Assembly: GCF_001644705.1 (NCBI RefSeq)
Contig: NZ_CP015137.1
Span: 720,001 to 752,000 of the forward strand
Length of the DNA stretch: 32,000 nt
Direction: 5' to 3'
DNA from: Dickeya solani IPO 2222
Lineage (GTDB): Bacteria; Pseudomonadota; Gammaproteobacteria; Enterobacterales; Enterobacteriaceae
Shown in pieces: positions 14,257 to 25,434 of the stretch; within the stretch, counting starts at the first letter, position 1; each line of letters opens with the position of its first letter. The translations under genes and the position numbers were made by a program. The notes under the pieces were generated by a model. The model did not search any database. It was given only the letters and a program-made list of their open reading frames with translations, and was not told the DNA's origin.

Positions 14257-14392
14257 AAACCTCCCAACCGGCGGAAAGAAGGCGGTACCGGCGGGATACC
14301 GTGACTTCCCTACGCTGGCATAATCCAGATCAGGTAATACGGGTCTATCTCAGCCGATTTCCGTGACAGGAAAGCGGCACCCCGAGTCAACG
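14257..14392 (-). promoter_or_regulatory. TPP (THI-box) riboswitch leader of thiMD
   Basis: Minus strand reads GACTCGGGGTGCC...GGCTGAGATAGACCCGTATTACCTGATCTGGATTATGCCAGCGTAGGGAAGTCACGG. This is nearly identical to the E. coli thiM aptamer core (CUGAGA...ACCUGAUCUGGAUAAUGCCAGCGUAGGGAA). Confidence 0.95.
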
Positions 14393-14398
14393 AACGCC

Positions 14399-14502: not shown

Positions 14503-15678
14503 CTAGGCAAACACATCGGCTAATTTCGCCAGCGCGGAACGCAGCAGTGCGCGCCGGCAGGCAAAATTAATCCGGGCAAATCCGGCGTACGCCGCACCGA
14601 ATTTCGCGCCGTCATCCAGCCACAGCCCGGCGCGGTTAAGCAAGGTCGCCTGTAAATCGGCCAGCGCAATGCCGCTTTCCCGGAAATCCAGCCAGCCAAG
14701 ATAGAGCGCGTCGGCGTCAAACAGCCGAACCCGTGAGTGCGGGCCAAGGCTCGCCTGCACCAGCGCCCGGTTATCGCGCAAATAGTCCAGCAGCGCGGAC
14801 AGCCACGGCCCGCCATGACGGTAAGCCGCTTCGCAGGCCGCCAGCCCCAGCATATTGGGAATATGCAATGAGCAACGCGCATAGCTTCGTTTCAGCGCGT
14901 CGCGTATCGTCTTATTGGCAATAAACAGATTGGAAGTCTGCAATCCCGCCAGGTTGAACGTCTTGCTGGGCGAGGTGCAGGTAATGCTGTGCTCAGCAAA
15001 CTCGTCGTTAATGCTGGCGAAAGGCTGATGCCGTTTATCAGGATTCAGGATCAAATCCTGATGAATTTCATCAGAGACGACCATCACGCCATGACGTCGG
15101 CAGATGTTGCCCATCGCCAGCAGTTCGTCCCGGCTCCAGACATGACCGGTCGGGTTGTGCGGGTTGCATAAAAAAAACAGCCGCGTCGTCGGGGTGATCG
15201 CCTGTTCGAAGGCATCAAGATCCAGCGTATACCCGGATGCCGTCTCGGTTAATGGCGCCGTCACCACCTGCCGGTCGTTCATGGTTACGCAGTGATAAAA
15301 CGGCCCGTAAACCGGCGGCTGGATCAACACCCCCTCCCCCGGCTGGGTAAAGGTCTGCACAATCATGCTCAGGCTGTTCACCACCCCTGGGCTCTGCACA
15401 ATCCAGTCCTGATGGATTTTCCAGCCATGATGATGCAACTGCCATTGGATAATGGCGTCAAACAGGGTTTCGCTGGCTCGCGTATACCCAAAGACGCCCT
15501 GACTGACGGCGTCGTGCAACGCCTGTTGCACCTCATCCGGGCACCTAAAATCCATATCCGCAATCCACAACGGCAGCGGTGGCCGAGAGGCAGGGTGCGG
15601 CAGATACGGAGAGGGGTATTCCCATTTCAGTAAATGCGAATGTGAAAAATCGATAACCTCATCGAAACGGCACGCCAT
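14503..15678 (-). CDS. PLP-dependent aminotransferase class I/II, MalY/PatB subfamily (cystathionine beta-lyase-type C-S lyase)
   Basis: About 390 aa with LWIADMDF, FLCNPHNPTG, VVSDEIH and TSPSKTFNLAGL (PLP lysine), typical of MalY/PatB. GGAGTGAG Shine-Dalgarno, 36 nt after the MFS gene. Confidence 0.85.
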   Translation of the reverse strand: MACRFDEVIDFSHSHLLKWEYPSPYLPHPASRPPLPLWIADMDFRCPDEVQQALHDAVSQGVFGYTRASETLFDAIIQWQLHHHGWKIHQDWIVQSPGVVNSLSMIVQTFTQPGEGVLIQPPVYGPFYHCVTMNDRQVVTAPLTETASGYTLDLDAFEQAITPTTRLFFLCNPHNPTGHVWSRDELLAMGNICRRHGVMVVSDEIHQDLILNPDKRHQPFASINDEFAEHSITCTSPSKTFNLAGLQTSNLFIANKTIRDALKRSYARCSLHIPNMLGLAACEAAYRHGGPWLSALLDYLRDNRALVQASLGPHSRVRLFDADALYLGWLDFRESGIALADLQATLLNRAGLWLDDGAKFGAAYAGFARINFACRRALLRSALAKLADVFA

Positions 15679-15714
15679 ATCTCACTCCAATACCGGACAT
15701 AACGTCGGTAAGCA

Positions 15715-17025
15715 TCAATTCAGGGAAGATTTTTCGAGATCCGCCGGTTCCGATTGATGCCGTCTGATACGGCTCATCCGGTAGACTTGCAGTTGCAGCA
15801 GCAGCGCCACGGCCAGCAGGAAATAGGCGGCAATCATCGGCGACCAATCGTCGCGCCAGCTATTCATGACAACCCAGGCGACCAGCGAAGAGAACGACAT
15901 CTGTATCGCCGCCATCAGCGCGGAAGCCTGTCCGGCCAGCGATTTGAACGGAGACAACGCCACCGCCGCCCCGGTCGCAATCAGTACGGAGAAACCCAGG
16001 CTGCCCAGTGTGGCCGAAAGCAGATAAGGCCAGACCGAGACGGTCAACACATGAATCGTCATTATAAAGCCGGTCATGGCCAGTAGAATCAACACCGCGC
16101 CGCCATACAGAATCACGGTTTCTTTCACTCGCCCCAGCAGCCGGGCGGTCAGCAGGCTGCCGCCGGTGATGGCCAGGGCGTTGACGGCAAAGTAGTACCC
16201 AAATTGATCCACCGGGATATGCAGCGTTTCGATCAGTACGATGGGCGAACTGGAAAAGAAAATCAGTTGCGTGGCAAAACCGAAACTGGCGGCAAAACAT
16301 CCCAACCGAAACTCGGGGTGGCGAAAAACCGTCAGATATCCGGAGAAAACGTTTAGCGACGATGCCGGGGAAAGCGCGTCAGAACGCGCGCGGTTGCACG
16401 CCGCAGGCAGCGGTTTCCACCACGCCAGCACACCGCACAGCAACGCGAAGGCGCCCAGCGCATAAAAGCTGGAACGCCAGCCATAGTGTACGATCAGCAG
16501 CCCGCCTATCACCGGCGCCAGCACTGGGACCAGGCTTATCACGCCGTTAAGCAGGCTGAACACTTTCCCGATAGCCGCGCCCTGAAAGCGCAGCGGCACG
16601 CTGGCCGAGGCGGCAACCGCCATCGCGCCGGCTCCGCATCCCTGCACCAGTCGCAGCGCGATAAACCATGAAATCGTGTCGGTAAAATACACGCCGATCG
16701 CGCTTAGCGCGTAAACCACGCTGCCGCACAACAACACGCATTGCGCGCCGAGGCGGTCGACCAGCGGCCCGAAGAACAGCTGACTGAGGCTCAAACACAG
16801 CACAAATCCGCTGATAATCCATTGCGTCATCCCCGGCATGCTGCCCAGCTCATGGGACATCAGCGGCACGCCGGGGAGGCAAATATCCAGCCCCAGCGGC
16901 GCGGCGACCACTAACGGGAACAGGCCGGCGACCCGTCCCAGACTCCCTTTTTCCAACCCCATACTCTCTTTTTCCAACCCCACGCTCTCTTTTTCCAACC
17001 CCACGCTCTCTTTTTTCAGCCCCAT
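15715..17025 (-). CDS. MFS transporter, Bcr/CflA-like drug/metabolite exporter, with a repeat-encoded N-terminal tail
   Basis: 12-TMS pattern and an MFS loop motif (GPLVDRLG). The ATG at 17025 overlaps the TGA of the upstream gene (GTGATG). An alternative start at 16962 would skip the repeat. Confidence 0.8.
   Translation of the reverse strand: MGLKKESVGLEKESVGLEKESMGLEKGSLGRVAGLFPLVVAAPLGLDICLPGVPLMSHELGSMPGMTQWIISGFVLCLSLSQLFFGPLVDRLGAQCVLLCGSVVYALSAIGVYFTDTISWFIALRLVQGCGAGAMAVAASASVPLRFQGAAIGKVFSLLNGVISLVPVLAPVIGGLLIVHYGWRSSFYALGAFALLCGVLAWWKPLPAACNRARSDALSPASSLNVFSGYLTVFRHPEFRLGCFAASFGFATQLIFFSSSPIVLIETLHIPVDQFGYYFAVNALAITGGSLLTARLLGRVKETVILYGGAVLILLAMTGFIMTIHVLTVSVWPYLLSATLGSLGFSVLIATGAAVALSPFKSLAGQASALMAAIQMSFSSLVAWVVMNSWRDDWSPMIAAYFLLAVALLLQLQVYRMSRIRRHQSEPADLEKSSLN
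16943..17025. repeat. About 3.5-4 tandem copies of a 21-bp unit (plus strand CCCCAYRCTCTCTTTTTCCAA), in frame in the MFS 5' end
   Basis: Units at 16957-16977, 16978-16998 and 16999-17019, plus partial copies on each side. They encode (GLEKESV/M)n: MGLKKESVGLEKESVGLEKESMGLEKGS. Confidence 0.95.
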
Positions 17026-18542
17026 CACGGTACCAGCGCCTCTGCCAGCGGAACCAGCTCGTGGCTTTTGAAACGACGGTTAATCAACGGATTCAGTCGA
17101 TGGTAGCGATGGCTAATAGACTGGTAAACCGCCGATGTCAGCATCGCGCCCACCTCATGCTTACTGAAATCAGACACCATATCGCCAGCGGCAATTTCGC
17201 CCCGCATGCCGGCGACAAACTCATAAAACGCTTTGGCTTTGGATTTCCCTTTCAATCCTTTTCGTCCGCCTTCCATCTCAAGAATGTCGTCAATATTGAA
17301 CATTTCAACATGTTTTCCGCCGAGCATTTTGTCATTGCGGAAAATATAGATTTCCAGATGTTCTTTCGTGCCGACGCGATGCCGCTCGTCCGAGTCATCA
17401 CCGGGCAATTCATCCGATTTATAAGAATGAAAATGAATCGACTGGAACGGCCCCTGCTGAAAAATATGCGATTCGTGAGAAACGCGGCCATTGCCTTTAT
17501 AGAGATCTCTTCCCGCCGCCGTCACCCAGTTGCGCTGCGAATAACCGTTGTGGCACAGATTAATGGAGGCCGCGGTCAGCGTCCTGTCGCCGGATTTAAA
17601 ACAGATATTGCTGCTGCAATCTACTTCGCCAAATGTTCCCAGCAGCAGCCCCAACTGTTTTTCATCATAATGGTTGGACTCGTCGAAACGACGTTTCCCA
17701 AACAGCGCACGATAATCATCGAGCGCCAGTTGACTGAGCACATCATCCGGCCGGATCGCCATCGAGAAGACGTCAATATTATCGAACTGTTTACCGTCGC
17801 CAAATCCAGCTTCCAGTACAAAAGGCACAATATCGAAATAGTGATAACCGCTGTGCGAGCATTTTCCATAACCCTGATTGTAAGGATGGTAATGCTGCTC
17901 CACCATTTCCGTCGGCATACGCCACTGACCGTCCGAATGAAAGGTCTGCACATTGGTTACCGGGCAATGGGTCTGCGCAAAACACTCGGCAATATAACGC
18001 TTGATCAGATTAAACGACGTCTGATATCGCCGCTGCGCCATAAGAGAAAACACCTGATCAGGATTATCACGCCGCTGTTTTTGATACAGGGCATTCAACA
18101 CCTGATAATCTTCGGCAAGCTTTATCGACTTTTCGATTGAGGTGGAAATACCTTCATACGATGAGATCGGTTTATCCATCAGAATCGACAAACCGGATTC
18201 CAGCGCCCAGCGGGCATACGGCATATGGGCCAGCGGTTCGGTAGCGATAATCACGCCATTAATCGCGTATTTTCTCACCACGTCATCCAGACGTTTTCTG
18301 ACATCGACGCCTAATTCAGTCTGGCTGTTATCGCTGTCATTAAAATACAGGATTTCCGGCTGTAACCGTTTATCCGCAAGATACGTTTCTATCCCCCACT
18401 TTGCTGAAATAAAATCCACCGCGGCGCATAAATTTAATGCAGGATCGTCACAGGACGCCTCCAGCAGCGGGTAATATATTCTTTTGGCGTGAGGCCCAAA
18501 CCCAATCAGCAGCAAATTGACAACATCATTATTCGTCAACAT
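17025..18542 (-). CDS. Atypical long (505 aa) Gfo/Idh/MocA-like oxidoreductase, function unknown
   Basis: N-terminal Rossmann-like LLLIGFGPHAKRIYYPLL, a DKP variant of the EKP motif (LMDKPIS), and GYGKCSHSGYHYFDIV at the family's substrate-domain position. About 150-180 extra C-terminal residues have no motif I recognise. Confidence 0.6.
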   Translation of the reverse strand: MLTNNDVVNLLLIGFGPHAKRIYYPLLEASCDDPALNLCAAVDFISAKWGIETYLADKRLQPEILYFNDSDNSQTELGVDVRKRLDDVVRKYAINGVIIATEPLAHMPYARWALESGLSILMDKPISSYEGISTSIEKSIKLAEDYQVLNALYQKQRRDNPDQVFSLMAQRRYQTSFNLIKRYIAECFAQTHCPVTNVQTFHSDGQWRMPTEMVEQHYHPYNQGYGKCSHSGYHYFDIVPFVLEAGFGDGKQFDNIDVFSMAIRPDDVLSQLALDDYRALFGKRRFDESNHYDEKQLGLLLGTFGEVDCSSNICFKSGDRTLTAASINLCHNGYSQRNWVTAAGRDLYKGNGRVSHESHIFQQGPFQSIHFHSYKSDELPGDDSDERHRVGTKEHLEIYIFRNDKMLGGKHVEMFNIDDILEMEGGRKGLKGKSKAKAFYEFVAGMRGEIAAGDMVSDFSKHEVGAMLTSAVYQSISHRYHRLNPLINRRFKSHELVPLAEALVP

Positions 18543-18567
18543 AACAGTAGTCGCTCAAATTCTGGCA

Positions 18568-20280
18568 TTAATGGTTCTGTTTCTTTTTCAGCAGATAATT
18601 ACCGATAAACAAGGCATCCATGCCGACGGCATGCCTGAAACAGTCAATAGCATCATCCGGCGATTCAACAATCGGCATGCCGGCCAGATTAAAACTGGTA
18701 TTGAGCACCACCGGCACGCCGGTCAGGTTCCCCAGCGCCTTAATCAGCTGGTAGAACTTTTTGTTTGAGTCGGCGGAAACGGTCTGCAATCTGGCGGTGC
18801 CGTCAACATGAATACAGGCGGGCATATCCACTTTGGCTTTGGTTTTCACCGGTGCGACTTTCATCATGTAAGGAACCGGCGACAACATATCGAAATAGGC
18901 ATCGGCGGCTTCTTCCAGCACTACAGGCGCATACGGCCTGAACCACTCGCGCAGTTTGATCTGACTATTGAGAATTTCCTTCGTCCAGCTATTGGAAGGA
19001 GAAGCAAGAATACTGCGATTACCCAGCGCTCTTGGGCCGTATTCACTGCGGTCCTGAAACCAGCCGATAATGTTGCCTGCCGCAATCAGACGAGCGGCCT
19101 GATATTCCGGCTCACTGACATGCTGAATACTGAATTCGTCTTCACAGGCGCGCAGGCTGCCGGCAATATCCTCTGCAGAATAAACCGGCCCCAAATAAGG
19201 GGAACTCTCAAATTGGGGAACCCGATGGTCTTTCTTCCAGAAATATTCCGCGGCGGCGCCCAGCGCCAGGCCGGCATCTCCCGGAGAAGGCGGTACATAA
19301 ACCTCAATACCCAGCGCTTCTTCCAGTTTACGGTTCATCACGGAATTCATAGCGACCCCGCCCGCAACGCACAAGGTATCGACGTGGTATTGTTCAATCA
19401 ATGCCTTCGCCCGCCGAATAATCGATTTTTGCAGTTGGTCCTGCGCCCAGGCCGCCAGATGCATATCAAACGGGCGAATGACTTCCCCTTTACCACGCCG
19501 TTCTGGAATATCCACGCCTTGCTTTTTAAACCATCCCTTCAGATCCTTGGTGCAATCATCGGCATAGCGTTCATCTTTCAGCGCCGATATTTCCCCTGCC
19601 GGCGTTTCGATAAACGAGGGATAGTCTGAAAATACCGCCGGGTTGCCGAAAGACGCCAGCCCCATGGTTTTGCCCGATTCACGATAGCTGTCAAACCCCA
19701 GATAACAGGTAATATCGCCATAAAACCGGCCATATCCCTGATCGCAAGGTTGCGTATTGTCCTGAGCGAGAAGGGTCAAATCATTATTCTCGTACAAATA
19801 ATAGCTGACCTGCTCCGCCGCATTATTTTCCAGCACCGCCGCATCGGCTCTTTCGCCAATAAGATTCCCCGTATGATCGGCAACTACAATCAAGGCGCGT
19901 TTGACATCCGTCTGGCTGACCGCGCTTAACGCATGAGCCGAATGGTGTGACGTCACGGCATGAATGTTATCAAACCCCGGAAATAACGCGTCGATCTCCT
20001 GTTTAAGTTTGCCGTCAAGCTCATGCGCGCCATTCATTGGCTGCCCGAAGCTAACGACGGAAATAGCGGAAATATCGCTCAGCGTCAGTTTATTGCGTTG
20101 CAGAATTTCCCGGACGGCGCAGGTGACCCGGCCATCATATTTTTTCCTTGAAACCCGCTCCTCCGCGATGGCGGTAATCACCTTGTCCCGGCTAGCCAGC
20201 ACTACATTACCATCGTAAGTCACCGTTCCATCCGCCAATACCGGAAGATTTACTGCTAAAATTAGCTCTTGCATAACCAT
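18568..20280 (-). CDS. NodU/CmcH-family carbamoyltransferase
   Basis: About 570 aa. Has the family metal-binding His cluster (TSHHSAHALSA), the ASKHA/Kae1-like segment LCVAGGVAMNSVMN, and the C-terminal block IHVDGTARLQTV...PVVLNTSFN. Confidence 0.88.
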   Translation of the reverse strand: MVMQELILAVNLPVLADGTVTYDGNVVLASRDKVITAIAEERVSRKKYDGRVTCAVREILQRNKLTLSDISAISVVSFGQPMNGAHELDGKLKQEIDALFPGFDNIHAVTSHHSAHALSAVSQTDVKRALIVVADHTGNLIGERADAAVLENNAAEQVSYYLYENNDLTLLAQDNTQPCDQGYGRFYGDITCYLGFDSYRESGKTMGLASFGNPAVFSDYPSFIETPAGEISALKDERYADDCTKDLKGWFKKQGVDIPERRGKGEVIRPFDMHLAAWAQDQLQKSIIRRAKALIEQYHVDTLCVAGGVAMNSVMNRKLEEALGIEVYVPPSPGDAGLALGAAAEYFWKKDHRVPQFESSPYLGPVYSAEDIAGSLRACEDEFSIQHVSEPEYQAARLIAAGNIIGWFQDRSEYGPRALGNRSILASPSNSWTKEILNSQIKLREWFRPYAPVVLEEAADAYFDMLSPVPYMMKVAPVKTKAKVDMPACIHVDGTARLQTVSADSNKKFYQLIKALGNLTGVPVVLNTSFNLAGMPIVESPDDAIDCFRHAVGMDALFIGNYLLKKKQNH

Positions 20281-21110
20281 TCCTTTTTCTCGTATTTTTT
20301 TGCCCGCAATAAAAACGTCAATGGAATAGCAGAAAACGTATTATTGAAACGCCACCAGCCGTCTTCATGTTGCGATAATTGAGAGAATGCCTTGTAAAAG
20401 GTTTTATCAAATTCTCTGAATGCCGTTATAGACAAGTTTTCGTTGGTCAGACTGGTGATGATTTCGGAAAGGCTGTGAAACCAGACATATTGTTCCTGAT
20501 GCTCTATCTGACGATGTTCATTGGCGTAGGAATATTTATAGTTTGTTTTTACCGGGGCGCCAGGCTGGATAGGAGAGAATAACGCCTTACTATCAAGCGG
20601 CGCATTATCCTGATGAGGGTTGCTGAACATTCTGGCAACAGGGTGCTCGTCAATCAGCAGTAATTCACCGCCGGGTTTAAGGTGTGAAGCGATCGCGTTC
20701 GCCCACAAATTAAGATGTTCAAGCCAGACAAGAACGCCATAGGACGTAAAAATAAGGTCGAAATCAGATAAATTTAACTCAGACAGGTCATAGACATTGG
20801 CGCAATAAAAATTCGTTTTAAGGCCAAATTTATGTTTAATTGCATTCGCGGTATCGATGGCGGCAGCCGAATAATCAACCGCGGTAACCTCAGCCCCCAT
20901 CACTTCCAGAGCAAAACTGTCCAGACCGACATGACACTGGAGGTGAAGTATTCTTTTATTATTTAAATCACCTAATTCGGCCAGTTCGATATCTTTTAAT
21001 TTACATTCCCACGGGTCATAGTTATCAATATCATAATCGGATTTCCCAGAATGGATTTGGGCCAGTTCATCCCAGAACTGAATATTCTTACTATCATAAA
21101 AGTTTTTCAA
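20262..21110 (-). CDS. Class I SAM-dependent methyltransferase
   Basis: Motif I ILHLQCHVGLDS, an acidic residue after beta-2 (VTAVDYS), and post-I DLIFTSYGVLVWL. TTG start at 21110 with an AGGGA Shine-Dalgarno; an in-frame stop upstream leaves no ATG option. The 3' end overlaps the carbamoyltransferase start by 19 nt. Confidence 0.82.
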   Translation of the reverse strand: MKNFYDSKNIQFWDELAQIHSGKSDYDIDNYDPWECKLKDIELAELGDLNNKRILHLQCHVGLDSFALEVMGAEVTAVDYSAAAIDTANAIKHKFGLKTNFYCANVYDLSELNLSDFDLIFTSYGVLVWLEHLNLWANAIASHLKPGGELLLIDEHPVARMFSNPHQDNAPLDSKALFSPIQPGAPVKTNYKYSYANEHRQIEHQEQYVWFHSLSEIITSLTNENLSITAFREFDKTFYKAFSQLSQHEDGWWRFNNTFSAIPLTFLLRAKKYEKKEWLCKS

Positions 21111-21656
21111 CTGATAATCCCTTTTATTGAAATAAAAGAATGAAACATGAAAAACTATAATTCGCCGGGGATGGTAATTTACGAAACCATAGATGTCAAT
21201 GAATGTTATTTATGAAAACACGCTATTAATTACAACGCTCACAATTTAAAAAAGAGACTATGGGCAGTGATAACCTATATTTTCACCAAATATGATTAAC
21301 GAATCGACTTACATTTAATGCGTTACATTCACAATGCATTACTATGTTTTTCACTCAGCGCATTTATTTGTGATAATGGACACATTAAAAAACTGGAATA
21401 TTCCTACTGCATCGTACCTATTGTATTTACGGTTAAAACGATAATGATAATTAAATCCACCGTATTTCCACCAACCTCATCGCGCCACAGGGTGAACCCC
21501 GAAGTAGCCAATGAATTCCGCCAGTGCGCCTGCAACGTGAGAGATGACAAGGGCATCATTTTATTTTCCGCATGACAGGTAATACTGCCCCCGCCACCAC
21601 AGTGTTGGTATACTGGAGCGGTTATAACATTATGCAGAATTGGCCGGGAGAACGGT

Positions 21657-22550
21657 GTGAATATTAAGCAGCTTCAATATTTCTGCAAGGTGGTCGAAAC
21701 CGGCAGCGCCAGCCAGGCCGCCAAACAACTTCTCCTTGCGCCTACGGCTATCAGCATGCAGATATCCGCACTGGAAAAAGAACTCAATGGCGAATTGTTT
21801 AACCGCAGCTCAAGGCCAATGACGTTAACCCGGCTTGGGGAGTTCTTATATCAGCGCGCTCAGGAATTGATTTTTAATTTTGAAAAACTTGAAGCCGACG
21901 CCTATCAGTATCTGAATAGTGAATCCACTTCGCTCACGCTGGGATTTGTCCGCTCGGTTATGTTTAATCTGCTGCCGGAAACCATCAAGCATTATGCGGA
22001 CAGTTACGGCCATATTAATATCCATCTCAAGGAAGTGCTTTCGGAATATCAGCCTGAAATGCTTGGCAATCAAGTTATTGATATCGGCATCACCCGCGAA
22101 ATGGATAACGACAACTTTGTCGGCAGCGAGCTATGTCATGAACTGATTATGGTTGATCCGCTTATCGCCGCCATCCCTAAAAACCACTATCTCTCCAGAA
22201 AAAAATTCATTACCTTGAGAGACTTCTGCAATTCGCCGTTTATTATTTTTCCGAGCGATCAAAAGAGTGGGTTCTCGGTGCGTATCTTTGATCTGTTCAA
22301 ACAGCATCACTGTGTGCCGGCCATCTCGCATCGGGCGATTGAGATTCATACCGCGCTGGCGCTGGTCGGTGCGGGGCTTGGCGTTACGCTGGTGGGGAAA
22401 ACCACCATGCCGAATAACCGGCAGGACATTATTTTTCTTCCCATCGAAGATTTTAAAATCTCTAGCTATATCTATGCGGTTTATCACCCGAAGAATAAAA
22501 ACCCGAACATTGCATCCTTTATTGAGACCATGAAAAAAATAGCGGGTTAA
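21657..22550 (+). CDS. LysR-family transcriptional regulator
   Basis: wHTH MNIKQLQYFCKVVETGSASQAAKQLLLAPTAISMQISALEKEL plus a LysR substrate-binding domain. GTG start 6 nt after GGGAG. Divergent from the methyltransferase operon. Confidence 0.9.
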   Translation: MNIKQLQYFCKVVETGSASQAAKQLLLAPTAISMQISALEKELNGELFNRSSRPMTLTRLGEFLYQRAQELIFNFEKLEADAYQYLNSESTSLTLGFVRSVMFNLLPETIKHYADSYGHINIHLKEVLSEYQPEMLGNQVIDIGITREMDNDNFVGSELCHELIMVDPLIAAIPKNHYLSRKKFITLRDFCNSPFIIFPSDQKSGFSVRIFDLFKQHHCVPAISHRAIEIHTALALVGAGLGVTLVGKTTMPNNRQDIIFLPIEDFKISSYIYAVYHPKNKNPNIASFIETMKKIAG

Positions 22551-22612
22551 TGCCGGAGCCGGGTCGTTAATCACGCACACGCTCGGTGGCATTAAGCCTT
22601 TTTCTTATCAGC

Positions 22613-22681
22613 AGAGGGATTTCAAGTAGCAACGTAGAGAGATTTTAAATAGCAACGTAGAGAGATTTTAAAGAGCAGCAC
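22613..22681. repeat. Three tandem copies of a 23-bp unit (AGAGAGATTTTAAATAGCAACGT)
   Basis: Copies at 22613-22635 (diverged), 22636-22658 and 22659-22681 (diverged 3' half), between the convergent LysR and MFS genes. Confidence 0.9.
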
Positions 22682-22707
22682 AGAGGAACCGCCAGCATTC
22701 ACCACCC

Positions 22708-22751: not shown

Positions 22752-24083
22752 TTACGCCACCTTCATCGGTTCGTCAATAGTGAGCACAACCAGAAACGTG
22801 AAGATTGAAATGACCGCCATAAACAAGAACACGCTGTTCCAGCCATAGAAATCCAGGATAAGCCCGCCAATAAAAGGCGTCGCGGCGCCGCCAAGTTGGC
22901 CGCCCATATTCACCAGCGCATTCGCCACCGGGAATTTGTCTTTGGCGATGAAAGACATCGGGTACACCATATAGGCGGAAAAACCAATGCTCAGCAGCAA
23001 TCCGGTCACGAAAAGCAACAGTGCGCACATCACCGGGCTTGCCGGCACCACGATCAGGCAAAGCATCATCAGCGATGTAGACAATGCCGAGATCAGCATG
23101 CCGGGCTTTCTGCGTTTGCCCAGTACTTTATCCGAAAGCACGCCCCCCAGCAGGTTGCCCAGCACAGCCCCAACCCAGGGTGCGGCAGCGACGAATCCCA
23201 TACCCATCACAGACAGGTTTTTCTCGGTGAGCAAATAGGTCGGGATCCAGGCCAGCAGCAGGCTGGAAATCCCTAACTGACAACAATAGCCGAAACTGCA
23301 TCCCAGCACATTCCAGGACGAATAAATCGCTTTTTCCGTTGTTATCTCTTTGACGCTTCTGACGCGAATTAAGGTATCGAGGTAAGGTATTCTTTTATAT
23401 TTTTCACTATTGGCAGTGGCCGTACTACCATTCTGCTTCTCATTGATGAGGTCCAGTTCCTGCTGGTTGACGAAACCGGATTCAGCCGGCTTATCCTTAA
23501 CAAAGCAGAACCACAGTATGGGTAACAATAACCCCGGCAGCGCAAAGAACAGGAATATTTCCTTCCAGCCCCAATGCGTGATAATCATCGAACCGATGAT
23601 GGGAGTAATAACCGGGCCCAACTTGATGGATGACAAAAAAATACCGGACGCGATGCCCTTCTCACGTGAAGGAAACCAGTTATTAATGGTGGACGTCACG
23701 CCGATAGGCAACGGCCCTTCCGCAATTCCCAGCAAGATGCGGCATAACTTCAGTTGCAGAATCGACCCGACAAGACCCGTCAGCGCCGTCGCTATTGAGG
23801 TGAGCACCATGGATGTGGTGAACACCCTCCTGACGCCGAACCGGGCTATCAGCCAGGCCGAAGGTAACTGAACGAACGCATACGCAATCAGGAAAAGACT
23901 CACTAACGCACCGGCCTCCGCATTTGTCATGGTAAATTCTTTGCGAATAAACGGCAGCGCCACGCCAAGATTGGCCCGGTCTGCAGCGGCAACGGTATAA
24001 ATGAGAAAGAACAGTGCCGCAACCCACCACCGGTGGTGGGTTGGTTTGCTCCTCACATTAACCTGTTCAACACTAAGACTCAT
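22752..24083 (-). CDS. MFS transporter, anion:cation symporter (ACS) family (ExuT/GudP/DgoT-like organic-acid permease)
   Basis: ADRANLGVALPFI signature near TM1 and 12 TMS, with a central hydrophilic loop typical of ACS members. Confidence 0.85.
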   Translation of the reverse strand: MSLSVEQVNVRSKPTHHRWWVAALFFLIYTVAAADRANLGVALPFIRKEFTMTNAEAGALVSLFLIAYAFVQLPSAWLIARFGVRRVFTTSMVLTSIATALTGLVGSILQLKLCRILLGIAEGPLPIGVTSTINNWFPSREKGIASGIFLSSIKLGPVITPIIGSMIITHWGWKEIFLFFALPGLLLPILWFCFVKDKPAESGFVNQQELDLINEKQNGSTATANSEKYKRIPYLDTLIRVRSVKEITTEKAIYSSWNVLGCSFGYCCQLGISSLLLAWIPTYLLTEKNLSVMGMGFVAAAPWVGAVLGNLLGGVLSDKVLGKRRKPGMLISALSTSLMMLCLIVVPASPVMCALLLFVTGLLLSIGFSAYMVYPMSFIAKDKFPVANALVNMGGQLGGAATPFIGGLILDFYGWNSVFLFMAVISIFTFLVVLTIDEPMKVA

Positions 24084-24091
24084 AAATTACC

Positions 24092-24748
24092 TCATTCTAA
24101 ATTCAAATATTTAAATACAGGATTCAATCCCATTAATTCTGCAGTAGTGGCTCCGTGGTTTATTTTTTCTTTATAATGGGTTTCTTTTTCTTCTCTGGTT
24201 TTCGCCAGATCAATGACATCGGATACGCTATGTTTATCAATAACGACCAGACCATCTGAATCGCCGACGATAATGTCGCCTGGATGAATAATGCAGTCGC
24301 CGATCACCACCGTTTCATTCACTTTCCCAGGCTGATGTTTACCTGTGCCTTTAATGGATATTCCTCGTGAGAAGACCGGGAAACCGGCATCAATAATGGC
24401 GTCGCTGTCGCGGACCGCGCCATTGACGACCAAACCGGCCAGGCCGATAAATTGTGCCTGTGAGGTAAGCACATCGCCCCAGACGCCCGCTTCAATAAAT
24501 CCCTGACAATTAATGACCAGCACATCGCCTTTTTTCGCCTGAAGCAACGCATAATGGATCATAAGATTATCGCCCGGCCGCATTTCCACGGTTAATGCCG
24601 GCCCGGCTATTTTCATACCACGCGCAATGGGCTTAATTTCGGCATCAATAGCACCTGTCGCGCCTTGCGCTTCATACACCGTCGCCGCACCCAACGTTTT
24701 TAATATGTCATACATATTGCCGTTCAGGCGGTTATGTTCAGTCGTCAT
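24092..24748 (-). CDS. RraA-fold protein (HMG/CHA aldolase / oxaloacetate decarboxylase-like), paralog 1
   Basis: VYEAQG..G.I...IKP, PGDNLM, GDVLV, GVWGDVLT, GLVVNGAVRD and GD.IVGD.DG.VVI are the RraA/aldolase family blocks. It carries the about 50-aa C-terminal extension seen in the aldolase subgroup. Confidence 0.82.
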   Translation of the reverse strand: MTTEHNRLNGNMYDILKTLGAATVYEAQGATGAIDAEIKPIARGMKIAGPALTVEMRPGDNLMIHYALLQAKKGDVLVINCQGFIEAGVWGDVLTSQAQFIGLAGLVVNGAVRDSDAIIDAGFPVFSRGISIKGTGKHQPGKVNETVVIGDCIIHPGDIIVGDSDGLVVIDKHSVSDVIDLAKTREEKETHYKEKINHGATTAELMGLNPVFKYLNLE

Positions 24749-24762
24749 GAGTTGATCCTTGA

Positions 24763-25434
24763 TTAACGCTTATTGGGGTTTCTTTGCAGCAAATGATAAT
24801 TGTGTTTTTTTCGCGCATCCGAAATACGCATGCCTGACAGCACATCGCTCAAAATACTCCGTTCAACCGTCTGCATTTGTAATGCACGGTCAATGACGTT
24901 TTCCAGATGATGACGACCGATAACAACGACGCCATCAATATCGGCTACGATAACATCCCCGTTTTTAATAGTGACGCCGCTAATACTGATCGGCTCACAA
25001 ACAGCGGCAACCTGAACACGGTCTTTCCCCGTGCGCATATAATGACCAAGGGCGTAAATAGGATATTGGCTTTGATTGGCTTCATCCGTATCCCGGCTCA
25101 CGCCATTAATAACCGTACCGGCTATTTTCTTGCTGGCGGCAAGTTGACTCAAAATACCACCCCAGACAGTGCAATCCTTCCGGGCTGCATTATCAATAAC
25201 CACGACATCTCCCGACTGGACGTCATCGATATAATCGCCAACAGTACCGATATTATCCGGATCAACGGCAATATATCTTACCGTCCATGCCGTTCCGGCG
25301 ATTCTCTGATTACCGGCAATATGTCTGATGCCCAGCAATGAACCGGGTAGTGAAAAATAATCGAGCGCATCCGATAATTCCGGCGTTGACAGTTGTTTTG
25401 ATTTCTCAAGGTATAAATCAATATTCAAATTCAT
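24763..25434 (-). CDS. RraA-fold protein, paralog 2 (divergent)
   Basis: STPELSDAL, GDVVVID, TVWGGILS, GTVINGVSRD and GDVIVADIDGVVVI share the fold blocks but are clearly diverged from paralog 1. Confidence 0.8.
   Translation of the reverse strand: MNLNIDLYLEKSKQLSTPELSDALDYFSLPGSLLGIRHIAGNQRIAGTAWTVRYIAVDPDNIGTVGDYIDDVQSGDVVVIDNAARKDCTVWGGILSQLAASKKIAGTVINGVSRDTDEANQSQYPIYALGHYMRTGKDRVQVAAVCEPISISGVTIKNGDVIVADIDGVVVIGRHHLENVIDRALQMQTVERSILSDVLSGMRISDARKKHNYHLLQRNPNKR

Follow-up and report, generated by a model that had tools for sequence, protein, structure and literature searches.

A conserved and mobile five-gene operon of Dickeya solani that may make and export a nucleoside-like compound

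Background

In cordycepin biosynthesis Cns1 and Cns2 form a pair of an oxidoreductase and an HD phosphohydrolase. In albomycin biosynthesis AbmE and AbmI are a precedent for nucleoside carbamoylation and methylation by a carbamoyltransferase/methyltransferase pair. Here we compare these and two further clusters with a five-gene operon of Dickeya solani IPO 2222. It lies in a stretch of 32,000 nt (contig NZ_CP015137.1, positions 720,001 to 752,000, forward strand) that we call the window, and positions below count from its first letter. One of the further clusters is adgA-E of Photorhabdus luminescens, a low-GC operon of five genes whose products include an MFS pump, a Pur10-type dehydrogenase, a NUDIX protein and a phosphatase (PMC9239236). 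The other is thmABC, the 4'-thiothymidine cluster, which has a kinase and an NTPase, the latter giving self-resistance (PMC12691670).

We argue from comparative sequence analysis that the Dickeya operon is a horizontally mobile, conserved and co-inherited unit. It is very probably a unit for biosynthesis and export. Its central protein, which we call G505 after its 505 residues, belongs by its predicted fold to the Gfo/Idh/MocA family. The genes, in operon order and followed by the divergent LysR gene, are:

20262-21110, minus strand: gene 1, class I methyltransferase (Pfam Methyltransf_12/25/11), 282 aa, TTG start
18568-20280, minus strand: gene 2, carbamoyltransferase (Carbam_trans_N and Carbam_trans_C), 570 aa (568 aa from 20274 at NCBI)
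17025-18542, minus strand: gene 3, G505, 505 aa (weak GFO_IDH_MocA N-terminal match and predicted fold)
15715-17028, minus strand: gene 4, Bcr/CflA MFS pump (TIGR00710), 437 aa from GTG at 17028 or 436 aa from ATG at 17025
14503-15678, minus strand: gene 5, PatB/MalY-type pyridoxal phosphate (PLP) enzyme (TIGR04350), 391 aa
21657-22550, plus strand: LysR regulator (HTH_1 and LysR_substrate), 297 aa

An earlier note, made from the letters of this DNA, had proposed these six open reading frames and their families as well as the tight packing of the five minus-strand genes. All of the frames and profile assignments hold, and recomputing the junctions returned the same distances. From the coordinates, the methyltransferase and carbamoyltransferase genes overlap by 19 nt and a gap of 25 nt leads to G505. 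The TGA of G505 and the start of the pump gene read ccGTGATGggg, which is an overlap of 4 nt if GTG is the start and of 1 nt if ATG is. The gap from the pump to PatB is 36 nt. The TTG start of the methyltransferase has an AAGGGA Shine-Dalgarno sequence 7 nt upstream, and we found no convincing terminator inside the five-gene operon.

The puromycin and ADG pathways (Pur10-Pur4-Pur7-Pur3; adgA-E) share with the Dickeya operon the small low-GC enterobacterial layout, the lack of a scaffold synthase and the MFS exporter. They start from a primary nucleoside triphosphate (NTP), and a Gfo/Idh/MocA-type dehydrogenase using nicotinamide adenine dinucleotide (NAD) oxidises the ribose; we propose the same for Dickeya. 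Their NUDIX and phosphatase partners are matched in G505 loci elsewhere, but not in the Dickeya operon. G505 is about 150 aa longer, matches the Pfam N-terminal model weakly, and is likened to Pur10 and AdgB by description only. The defining set of a DegT/Pur4 aminotransferase, a Pur7 NUDIX protein and a Pur3 phosphatase is wholly absent, with none of the three in the Dickeya operon. Its PLP enzyme is a C-S beta-lyase instead, and a methyltransferase and a carbamoyltransferase are added.

The thmABC cluster is likewise a minimal nucleoside-antimetabolite cluster of the Enterobacterales, and its kinase and NTPase logic resembles the cassettes of G505 homologue, kinase and NUDIX protein described below. 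In thmABC and albomycin sulfur enters a nucleoside, as it may in the Dickeya product. However, it is inserted there by radical S-adenosylmethionine (SAM) enzymes rather than a PLP lyase, and neither system has a Gfo/Idh/MocA enzyme. AbmE and AbmI are likened to the Dickeya pair by description only. By analogy, the operon would resemble a small synthase-free cluster of the nucleoside-antimetabolite type.

Conservation and mobility of the operon

Loci of G505 relatives were collected from one genome per species and by exact-protein look-ups, and their open reading frames were searched with the six window proteins. The methyltransferase, carbamoyltransferase and G505 genes (the trio) are collinear in Dickeya, Xenorhabdus, Erwinia, Yersinia, Aeromonas, Alteromonadaceae and Chlamydiales, at 44-79% identity. 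The recurrence of one gene order in seven divergent lineages is, we argue, more than chance would produce. The versions outside D. solani, some of them from metagenome-assembled genomes (MAGs), are:

Xenorhabdus bovienii (L006): all five genes
D. zeae (L055): all five genes
Erwinia sp. (L004): trio, MFS, MetC-type PLP gene
Yersinia MAG (L049): trio, MFS, MetC-type PLP gene
Aeromonas veronii (L050): trio, MFS
Pseudomonadota MAG (L005): trio, MFS
Alteromonadaceae (L007, L008/L041): nucleotidyltransferase, trio, HlyD-like, MFS
Chlamydiales MAG (L014/L042): 515-aa gene, trio, tryptophanase-type PLP gene, carA, carB

As one test of its reading the earlier note asked whether the trio and the MFS/PatB pair occur together in other genomes, and in X. 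bovienii and D. zeae they do. The Bcr/CflA pump comes directly after the trio in Enterobacterales and Aeromonas. Divergence from the D. solani proteins is even across the operon genes. The Xenorhabdus proteins are 64% (methyltransferase), 77% (carbamoyltransferase), 73% (G505), 65% (MFS) and 69% (PatB) identical to them, and the chlamydial trio 44%, 54% and 50% in the same order. The most conserved junction is the overlap of the G505 stop with the MFS start, which is found in Dickeya (including D. zeae), Erwinia, Xenorhabdus, L005 and Vibrio. The Vibrio version consists of G505 and MFS alone, with the overlap kept.

In Vibrio cyclitrophicus (L045/L046, 8001-11455) this overlap is 1 nt and a short GFA-domain frame follows. 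A disulfide-reductase-like gene and a NUDIX gene lie nearby, and the pair abuts a prophage in one strain and an IMPDH/GMP-reductase-like gene in another. The carbamoyltransferase gene of the Yersinia MAG (L049, 5256-6967) is split into 105 and 477 aa, by gene decay or assembly error. The 515-aa chlamydial protein lies upstream of the trio; Pfam, PDB and PADLOC gave no match for it, and it is not similar to the nucleotidyltransferase of Alteromonas.

The chromosomal context of the operon varies between lineages and its GC content is below that of its flanks. Marks of mobile elements occur at the flanks, namely transposases in Alteromonas, a Tn3 transposase in L005 and ParDE in Yersinia. D. zeae and D. 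solani carry the operon at one and the same chromosomal site, between a glyoxalase gene and thiMD. The window matches two D. solani assemblies (one D. solani chromosome being CP016928.1) at 100% identity across 21.5 kb, and no near-identical plasmid-borne DNA was found. The GC content at third codon positions (GC3) in D. solani is 0.45 for the methyltransferase, 0.57 for the carbamoyltransferase and 0.54 for G505, against 0.73 for the pump and 0.69 for PatB (0.80 for thiMD). A milder gradient of the same kind runs through the Xenorhabdus and Erwinia operons, so the step is no evidence against a shared history of the five genes. Unequal amelioration and partial replacement are candidate causes of it.

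The operon proteins of D. solani, D. fangzhongdai, D. dadantii and D. zeae bear generic annotation only. A literature search pairing Dickeya or Xenorhabdus with carbamoyltransferase, nucleoside or Gfo/Idh/MocA returned no account of the operon. That agrees with the earlier impression that the combination is not a characterised cluster: within the searchable literature it is undescribed.

The G505 family

A word-indexed search returned more than 878 homologues of G505. A profile search of 1.84 billion representatives grouped the family into 379 clusters at 50% identity (E<=1e-30). Members occur in Enterobacterales, Aeromonas, Vibrio, Alteromonas, Chlamydiales, Patescibacteria, DPANN archaea, actinomycetes, Luteimonas and Bacillus, and no member bears a specific name. 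The earlier assignment of the protein to Gfo/Idh/MocA is borne out by a weak Pfam match together with the AlphaFold2 model and its Foldseek neighbours. The Pfam match is to PF01408, the GFO_IDH_MocA N-terminal model, at 26.6 bits against a cutoff of 24, and covers residues 72-132 only. A PDB sequence search with G505 matched only the Rossmann segment of Gfo/Idh/MocA proteins.

The hallmarks of the family are nevertheless in place. In an alignment of 16 diverse members (A1) the Rossmann GxGxxA motif appears as the near-invariant G14-F-G16-P-H-A, and a conserved acidic residue follows beta-2. D123-K124-P125 is invariant and aligns in hidden Markov model comparison with EKP of YhhX (3f4l) and DKP of 3e82. 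The catalytic-lysine motif EKP is thus present with Asp instead of Glu as its first residue. The AlphaFold2 model (predicted local distance difference test, pLDDT, 82; predicted template-modelling score, pTM, 0.85) has a visible beta-alpha-beta Rossmann pattern. It superposes over its full length on Gfo/Idh/MocA structures, with 339 PDB chains matched by Foldseek at E<=0.001. The C-terminal alpha/beta domain of the family is missed by the Pfam C-terminal models and is recovered by this superposition. The best match is the glucuronide-3-dehydrogenase 8tdi (E 2.7e-15). Next come the C-glycoside 3-oxidase DgpA, scyllo-inositol dehydrogenases, RgNanOx and 1,5-anhydrofructose reductase.

With the sugar C3-dehydrogenases among these (8tdi, DgpA, scyllo-inositol dehydrogenase, RgNanOx) G505 shares the two-domain fold at a target-normalised TM of 0.62-0.76. 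It differs from them in sequence, with 10-13% identity, and in size, with about 150 extra residues. The invariant motifs of the 16 members are EPLxH, DKP, HSDGQWRxP, QGYGKxSHxGYH, GNGR and QQGPFQ, and the last four are G505's own. Judged by its predicted structure, G505 truly belongs to the Gfo/Idh/MocA fold, within which it founds a branch that is uncharacterised. By analogy with its structural neighbours it would be an NAD-type oxidoreductase acting on a sugar-ring hydroxyl. It is likely the committed enzyme of the pathway.

A phage-borne or phage-defence role for G505 was also considered and is unsupported. No relatives were found in phage genomes or IMG/VR viral contigs. The PADLOC defence models gave no match for G505 or the carbamoyltransferase, and for the methyltransferase a generic methyltransferase-domain match to mad2.

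Neighbours and fusions of G505

Since no scaffold-forming enzyme is encoded, the earlier note reasoned that the substrate is a primary metabolite such as a sugar, nucleoside or amino acid. That reasoning stands, and the genes that accompany G505 elsewhere favour a nucleotide or nucleoside. Open reading frames within 7 kb of G505 were collected at 41 non-redundant loci and clustered, and the cluster representatives were annotated. A P-loop kinase resembling thymidylate kinase adjoins G505 at 12 of the 41 (clusters of 9 and 3), mostly in DPANN and the candidate phyla radiation (CPR). Its profile matches PDB thymidylate kinases (E 3e-12). NUDIX proteins lie near G505 in about 10 loci (clusters of 7 and 5, with two loci shared) and best resemble the NTP pyrophosphatases NudG, MutT, NudI and NudB. 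APH-like kinases stand alongside G505 in actinomycetes. A solitary G505 gene neighbours two nucleoside hydrolase genes, and a truncated nucleotidyltransferase of the CCA-adding type precedes the methyltransferase in Alteromonadaceae.

Some of these partners are fused to G505. NUDIX fusions are found in a Bacillus tropicus plasmid protein encoded at L047 8007-9788, in P0340 and in P0370, and a thymidylate-kinase-like fusion in P0328. G505 is joined to HAD in P0389, to HAD and NUDIX in P0413, to a preceding HD domain in P0295 and to APH on a Streptomyces plasmid. We argue that adjacency and fusion to kinase, NUDIX, HAD, HD and APH proteins point to a phosphorylated substrate of G505, most likely a nucleotide.

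Exporters of the ABC or MFS type occur in many G505 loci: the versions in enterobacteria, Aeromonas, Alteromonas and Vibrio include exporters, and several further loci have ABC exporters. Radical SAM/SPASM proteins are near G505 in 5 loci. We do not take these for viperins; pVip scores only 69 bits and generic SPASM maturases score higher. The actinomycete loci hold ABC exporter, SDR, APH, Ldh_2, NAGPA-like, WbqC-like, PIG-L and luciferase-like genes. Considered as possible A201A- or puromycin-like clusters, they proved to be neither.

The DPANN/CPR loci form a compact cassette of their own. A G505 homologue is followed about 0-1.2 kb downstream by an atypical P-loop kinase (FDGLNRxGKGTQ, GDGSR) and a NUDIX gene, and an AsnC-type regulator is often upstream (L010, L011, L013, L015, L017, L023, L028, L032 and L043). 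Judging from its gene content, this cassette looks like a minimal nucleotide-modifying module in organisms of reduced metabolism.

The PLP enzyme

For the PLP enzyme the earlier note left a choice between amination and C-S cleavage. The evidence favours C-S cleavage and disfavours amination. PatB scores 421.4 bits against TIGR04350 (cutoff 340) and belongs to that family. Its solved relatives are all C-S lyases, namely Bacillus subtilis PatB (351 bits), cysteine-S-conjugate beta-lyases, cystalysin and MalY. The X. bovienii orthologue, 69% identical, occupies the same slot. In D. solani GCA_013339845.1 (L003, 12865-14039) the gene is split into frames of 117 and 274 aa, by decay or assembly error.

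Other lineages fill the slot differently. Erwinia and the Yersinia MAG have a 392-aa Cys_Met_Meta_PP enzyme that exceeds the MetC equivalog cutoff (737 bits vs 634). The two genes are 90.6% identical although their flanks differ, which suggests that the gene travels with the operon. In Chlamydiales an enzyme of the tryptophanase family (628 bits vs 285) comes directly after G505 and before carA/carB. The called protein P0325, from a second lineage, holds G505 and a tryptophanase-like half together, each 47% identical to its chlamydial counterpart. Beta C-S lyase and cysteine desulfhydrase activity is common to PatB/MalY, MetC and TnaA, the classical enzymes of this kind in enterobacteria. One PLP family has been replaced in the same slot by two unrelated ones, and we argue that the pathway needs beta-lyase chemistry. 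An entry of cysteine-derived sulfur into the product would explain this most simply, with the methyltransferase as a candidate S-methyltransferase; we put that forward tentatively, at somewhat less than an even chance.

The methyltransferase, the carbamoyltransferase and the pump

The methyltransferase gives generic Pfam and NCBIfam matches (Methyltransf_11/12/25/31, TehB, TPMT). Orthologues 44-67% identical stand at the same position in six other lineages. Its family is large and unnamed (about 270 aa, 1484 matches), and its wider members are stand-alone genes in housekeeping neighbourhoods. Across the family (alignment A5) the usual motif I, DxGCGxG, is replaced by an invariant LHLQCHxGxD, and further residues, among them H156 and several Trp, are invariant too. 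By these residues it is a possible metal- or substrate-binding site. The AlphaFold2 model has a pLDDT of 86.7, and its Foldseek neighbours are the small-molecule methyltransferases ToxA, XrdM, Ecm18, NmbA, MitM and UbiG.

The carbamoyltransferase scores above cutoff for PF16861 Carbam_trans_C (222.8 bits, profile 1-170/170) and PF02543 Carbam_trans_N (77.3 bits). It thus has the Kae1-like N-terminal and YrdC-like C-terminal domains of the TobZ/NodU/CmcH family. The highest PDB match is the unnamed carbamoyltransferase 7xb6 (224 bits). TobZ follows at 200 bits over residues 28-570, an end-to-end alignment, and NovN and GdmN score similarly. The phage 5-hydroxymethylcytosine carbamoyltransferase was tried as closest relative and is more distant than TobZ, at 24% identity. 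By analogy with the family the expected mechanism runs via carbamoyl-AMP from carbamoyl phosphate and ATP. The presence of carA and carB inside the chlamydial operon supports a biosynthesis that depends on carbamoyl phosphate.

The order of methyltransferase and carbamoyltransferase genes had been thought to echo rhizobial nodS-nodU. Both systems do have the methyltransferase gene first, and both pairs would decorate a sugar-containing molecule. The echo goes no further than superfamily and gene order. No NodS model is among the Pfam/NCBIfam matches of the methyltransferase at E<=0.01. The carbamoyltransferase reaches 157.7 bits against the NodU equivalog NF041651, far below its cutoff of 1000, and aligns over residues 240-547 only. 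The Dickeya operon also lacks nodABC-like genes.

The pump scores 210.5 bits against TIGR00710 (cutoff 200.9, residues 36-413) and so is of the Bcr/CflA type. Its cytoplasmic N-terminal tail carries a repeat that is specific to D. solani:

16937-17024, minus strand: tandem repeat in the pump N-terminal tail, 21 bp x 4.2, in-frame (TRF)

The repeat encodes GLEKESV heptads (TRF score 127, 91% match). The D. zeae orthologue starts MKIGKENLGRIAG and has no repeats, and other orthologues are about 400 aa. From its sequence the heptad repeat is a possible length-variable region.

A proposed pathway and its rivals

We read the pathway from gene content, packing, synteny, the predicted fold of G505, and the context and fusions of its family. 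From these we infer what the substrate is, that sulfur takes part, in what order the steps run and where each modification is placed. In the proposed scheme G505 would oxidise a sugar-ring hydroxyl of a nucleotide, and the keto or enone intermediate so formed would be reactive. Cysteine sulfur would then be delivered or unmasked by a PLP beta C-S lyase, through desulfhydration of cysteine or cleavage of a cysteine S-conjugate; this lyase would be PatB in Dickeya, the MetC-type enzyme in Erwinia and Yersinia, and the tryptophanase-type enzyme in Chlamydiales. The class I methyltransferase would methylate the product, plausibly on the new thiol, and the TobZ-type carbamoyltransferase would add an O-carbamoyl group from carbamoyl phosphate and ATP. 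Export would fall to the translationally coupled Bcr/CflA pump. The product is probably a methylated, carbamoylated and possibly sulfur-bearing nucleoside-like compound, as far as gene content can tell. A nucleotide-derived scaffold seems to us evenly balanced against all other scaffolds. The overall mechanistic reading (nucleotide sugar oxidation, cysteine sulfur, methylation, O-carbamoylation and export) we would believe and doubt in about equal measure.

It must be said that several observations weigh against this scheme. Genes for a kinase, a NUDIX protein or a phosphatase are absent from the Dickeya operon, so its link to nucleotides is one of family association only. The actinomycete PIG-L, NAGPA and WbqC-like partners point to amino-sugar rather than nucleoside chemistry. 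The neighbour census was built on stop-to-stop frames and BLAST clusters, not on curated gene calls. P0325 is N-terminally truncated and is possibly two adjacent genes merged by the gene caller. The structural neighbours of the methyltransferase span N-, O- and S-directed enzymes, and S-methylation is not singled out. The PLP gene is missing from the Aeromonas, Alteromonas and L005 versions and PatB is frameshifted in one D. solani strain. This means that the sulfur chemistry is not obligatory or that it is supplied in trans.

One can picture the same operon logic working on a sugar, amino-sugar or nucleoside diphosphate (NDP)-sugar. A 3-keto sugar would be decorated by the methyltransferase and carbamoyltransferase as NovP and NovN decorate noviose, and the NUDIX and kinase partners elsewhere would handle an NDP-sugar or a sugar phosphate. 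The best structural matches of G505 are indeed sugar, glycoside and inositol 3-dehydrogenases. The PIG-L deacetylase, NAGPA-like phosphodiester glycosidase, WbqC-like and APH-like genes of actinomycetes fit as well, and NovN and TobZ, relatives of the carbamoyltransferase, carbamoylate sugars. However, the partner kinases resemble thymidylate or nucleotide kinases and not sugar kinases, and the NUDIX partners are closest to NTP pyrophosphatases. The HD fusion, the nucleotidyltransferase and the nucleoside-hydrolase neighbours suit nucleotides better, and every version of the operon is without a glycosyltransferase or a sugar-activating nucleotidylyltransferase. We consider a sugar scaffold unlikely. 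The PLP gene could also serve self-resistance or bypass, as an insensitive or extra beta-cystathionase (PatB, MetC-type or TnaA-type) that shields the producer from a product inhibiting cystathionine beta-lyase or a related PLP enzyme in the metabolism of methionine or cysteine. The Erwinia/Yersinia gene lies above the cutoff for genuine MetC (737 vs 634 bits), and PatB/MalY has beta-cystathionase activity, echoed in the PDB names 'Cystathionine beta-lyase PatB' and 'probable beta-cystathionase'. The gene is optional across operon versions, and non-orthologous replacement is typical of a requirement at the level of function. Against this, two lineages without the MFS gene have G505 fused or next to a tryptophanase-like enzyme, which fits catalytic cooperation better. 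Tryptophanase is not known as a substitute for MetC, and the rest of the operon is unlike known pathways of beta-cystathionase inhibitors such as rhizobitoxine or vinylglycines. This makes self-resistance quite unlikely.

A detoxification or resistance module, in which G505, the methyltransferase and the carbamoyltransferase inactivate an incoming nucleoside or sugar-type toxin and the pump expels it, is more improbable still. The minimal Vibrio pair of G505 and MFS does lie in a variable region beside a prophage, Bcr/CflA pumps are classic drug-efflux proteins, and NUDIX NTPases can confer resistance, as thmC does (PMC12691670). On the other hand, the chlamydial carA/carB imply a sustained use of carbamoyl phosphate that is typical of biosynthesis. 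Three steps that consume ATP, SAM or NAD together with a C-S lyase would be excessive for inactivation, and the lack of PADLOC matches (G505, carbamoyltransferase) and of G505 relatives in phage collections does not help this case either. A fortuitous juxtaposition of the trio with the MFS/PatB pair is hardly credible. The GC3 step between the two parts in D. solani is what speaks for it, and the same gradient is found in Xenorhabdus and Erwinia. Five genes are collinear in Xenorhabdus and D. zeae, the G505/MFS overlap is kept in five lineages, and divergence is similar across the five proteins (64-77%). We therefore keep a biosynthesis-and-export unit as the preferred reading of the operon.

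Regulation and flanking genes

The earlier note had counted the divergent LysR gene as part of the system. Its divergent position in D. solani is correct, across a spacer of 546 bp with 38% GC from the methyltransferase gene, but the gene is not co-inherited with the operon. L004, L005, L006, L041, L042, L049 and L050 have no LysR orthologue next to the operon, and the neighbourhoods in Xenorhabdus, Erwinia, Yersinia, Aeromonas, Alteromonas and Chlamydiales are free of it. The upstream neighbour in D. zeae is an unrelated LysR (BLASTP E 0.17) on the operon strand. From this distribution LysR may regulate the operon in D. solani only.

The spacer holds one conserved element:

21171-21261, minus strand: promoter-proximal block with TTGACA-17-TACCAT, common to D. 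solani and D. zeae

In an alignment of the two species upstream of the methyltransferase gene, near-continuous identity is confined to this block of about 90 bp. The promoter-like site (21199-21171, minus strand) came from a promoter scan and is about 60 nt upstream of the methyltransferase start. No operator conserved between genera was found upstream of that gene. The Rfam scan found no riboswitch there, its sole match being the thiamine pyrophosphate (TPP) riboswitch of thiMD. At about 21228-21247 the block contains AATTGTGAGCGTTGTAATT (TGTGA-N6-TAATT), a putative CRP-like half-site. Its centre is about 36 nt upstream of the -35 hexamer, and TGTGA-N6-TAATT is retained in D. zeae.

At the other end of the operon the riboswitch lies between the PatB stop and thiM-thiD:

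14290-14394, minus strand: TPP riboswitch RF00059, 71.4 bits, full length (Rfam scan)

A promoter-like site at 14428-14399 accompanies it. Because the riboswitch sits between PatB and thiM, thiMD is a separate thiamine-salvage unit downstream of PatB, and the operon stops at PatB.

Beyond LysR a second MFS gene (22752-24083) is convergent with it. The interval between the two holds a tandem repeat of 23 bp x 3 (22612-22685) and a strong terminator-like hairpin (22739-22716, minus strand). Upstream of the second MFS gene are two RraA-like aldolase genes (24092-25434), and together with that gene the RraA-like pair makes another low-GC unit.

Conclusions

D. solani is an economically important potato pathogen, and among its known secondary metabolites oocydin, zeamine and solanimycin come from polyketide synthase (PKS) and nonribosomal peptide synthetase (NRPS) clusters. 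The operon has no PKS, NRPS or other scaffold gene, so we would expect rule-based genome miners to miss it. Its carriers include plant pathogens (Dickeya, Erwinia), insect-pathogen symbionts (Xenorhabdus) and marine Alteromonadaceae. The in-situ swap of the PLP beta-lyase for two unrelated ones is a natural experiment on the chemistry that the pathway requires.

One can go further, into territory that we consider speculative and rather unlikely to hold as a whole. G505 would then represent a new NAD-dependent class of nucleotide-modifying enzyme that turns a phosphorylated nucleoside into an electrophilic keto or enone intermediate, with chemistry akin to S-adenosylhomocysteine (SAH) hydrolase or GH109. 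The DPANN, CPR and Firmicutes cassettes with a dedicated kinase and a NUDIX, HAD or HD phosphohydrolase would be widespread minimal nucleoside-antimetabolite factories. In Dickeya, Xenorhabdus, Erwinia and Yersinia sulfur from cysteine would trap the intermediate by way of whichever beta C-S lyase is at hand, and S-methylation, O-carbamoylation and export would follow. The product would be a methylthio-carbamoyl nucleoside of a kind not seen before, acting as a toxin or signal.

If the product is a nucleoside-type antimetabolite, it would be a new weapon or signal common to Dickeya, Erwinia, Xenorhabdus, Aeromonas, Alteromonadaceae and environmental chlamydiae. With this pathway, an enzyme family that spans bacteria and archaea and counts several hundred sequence clusters would receive its first function.

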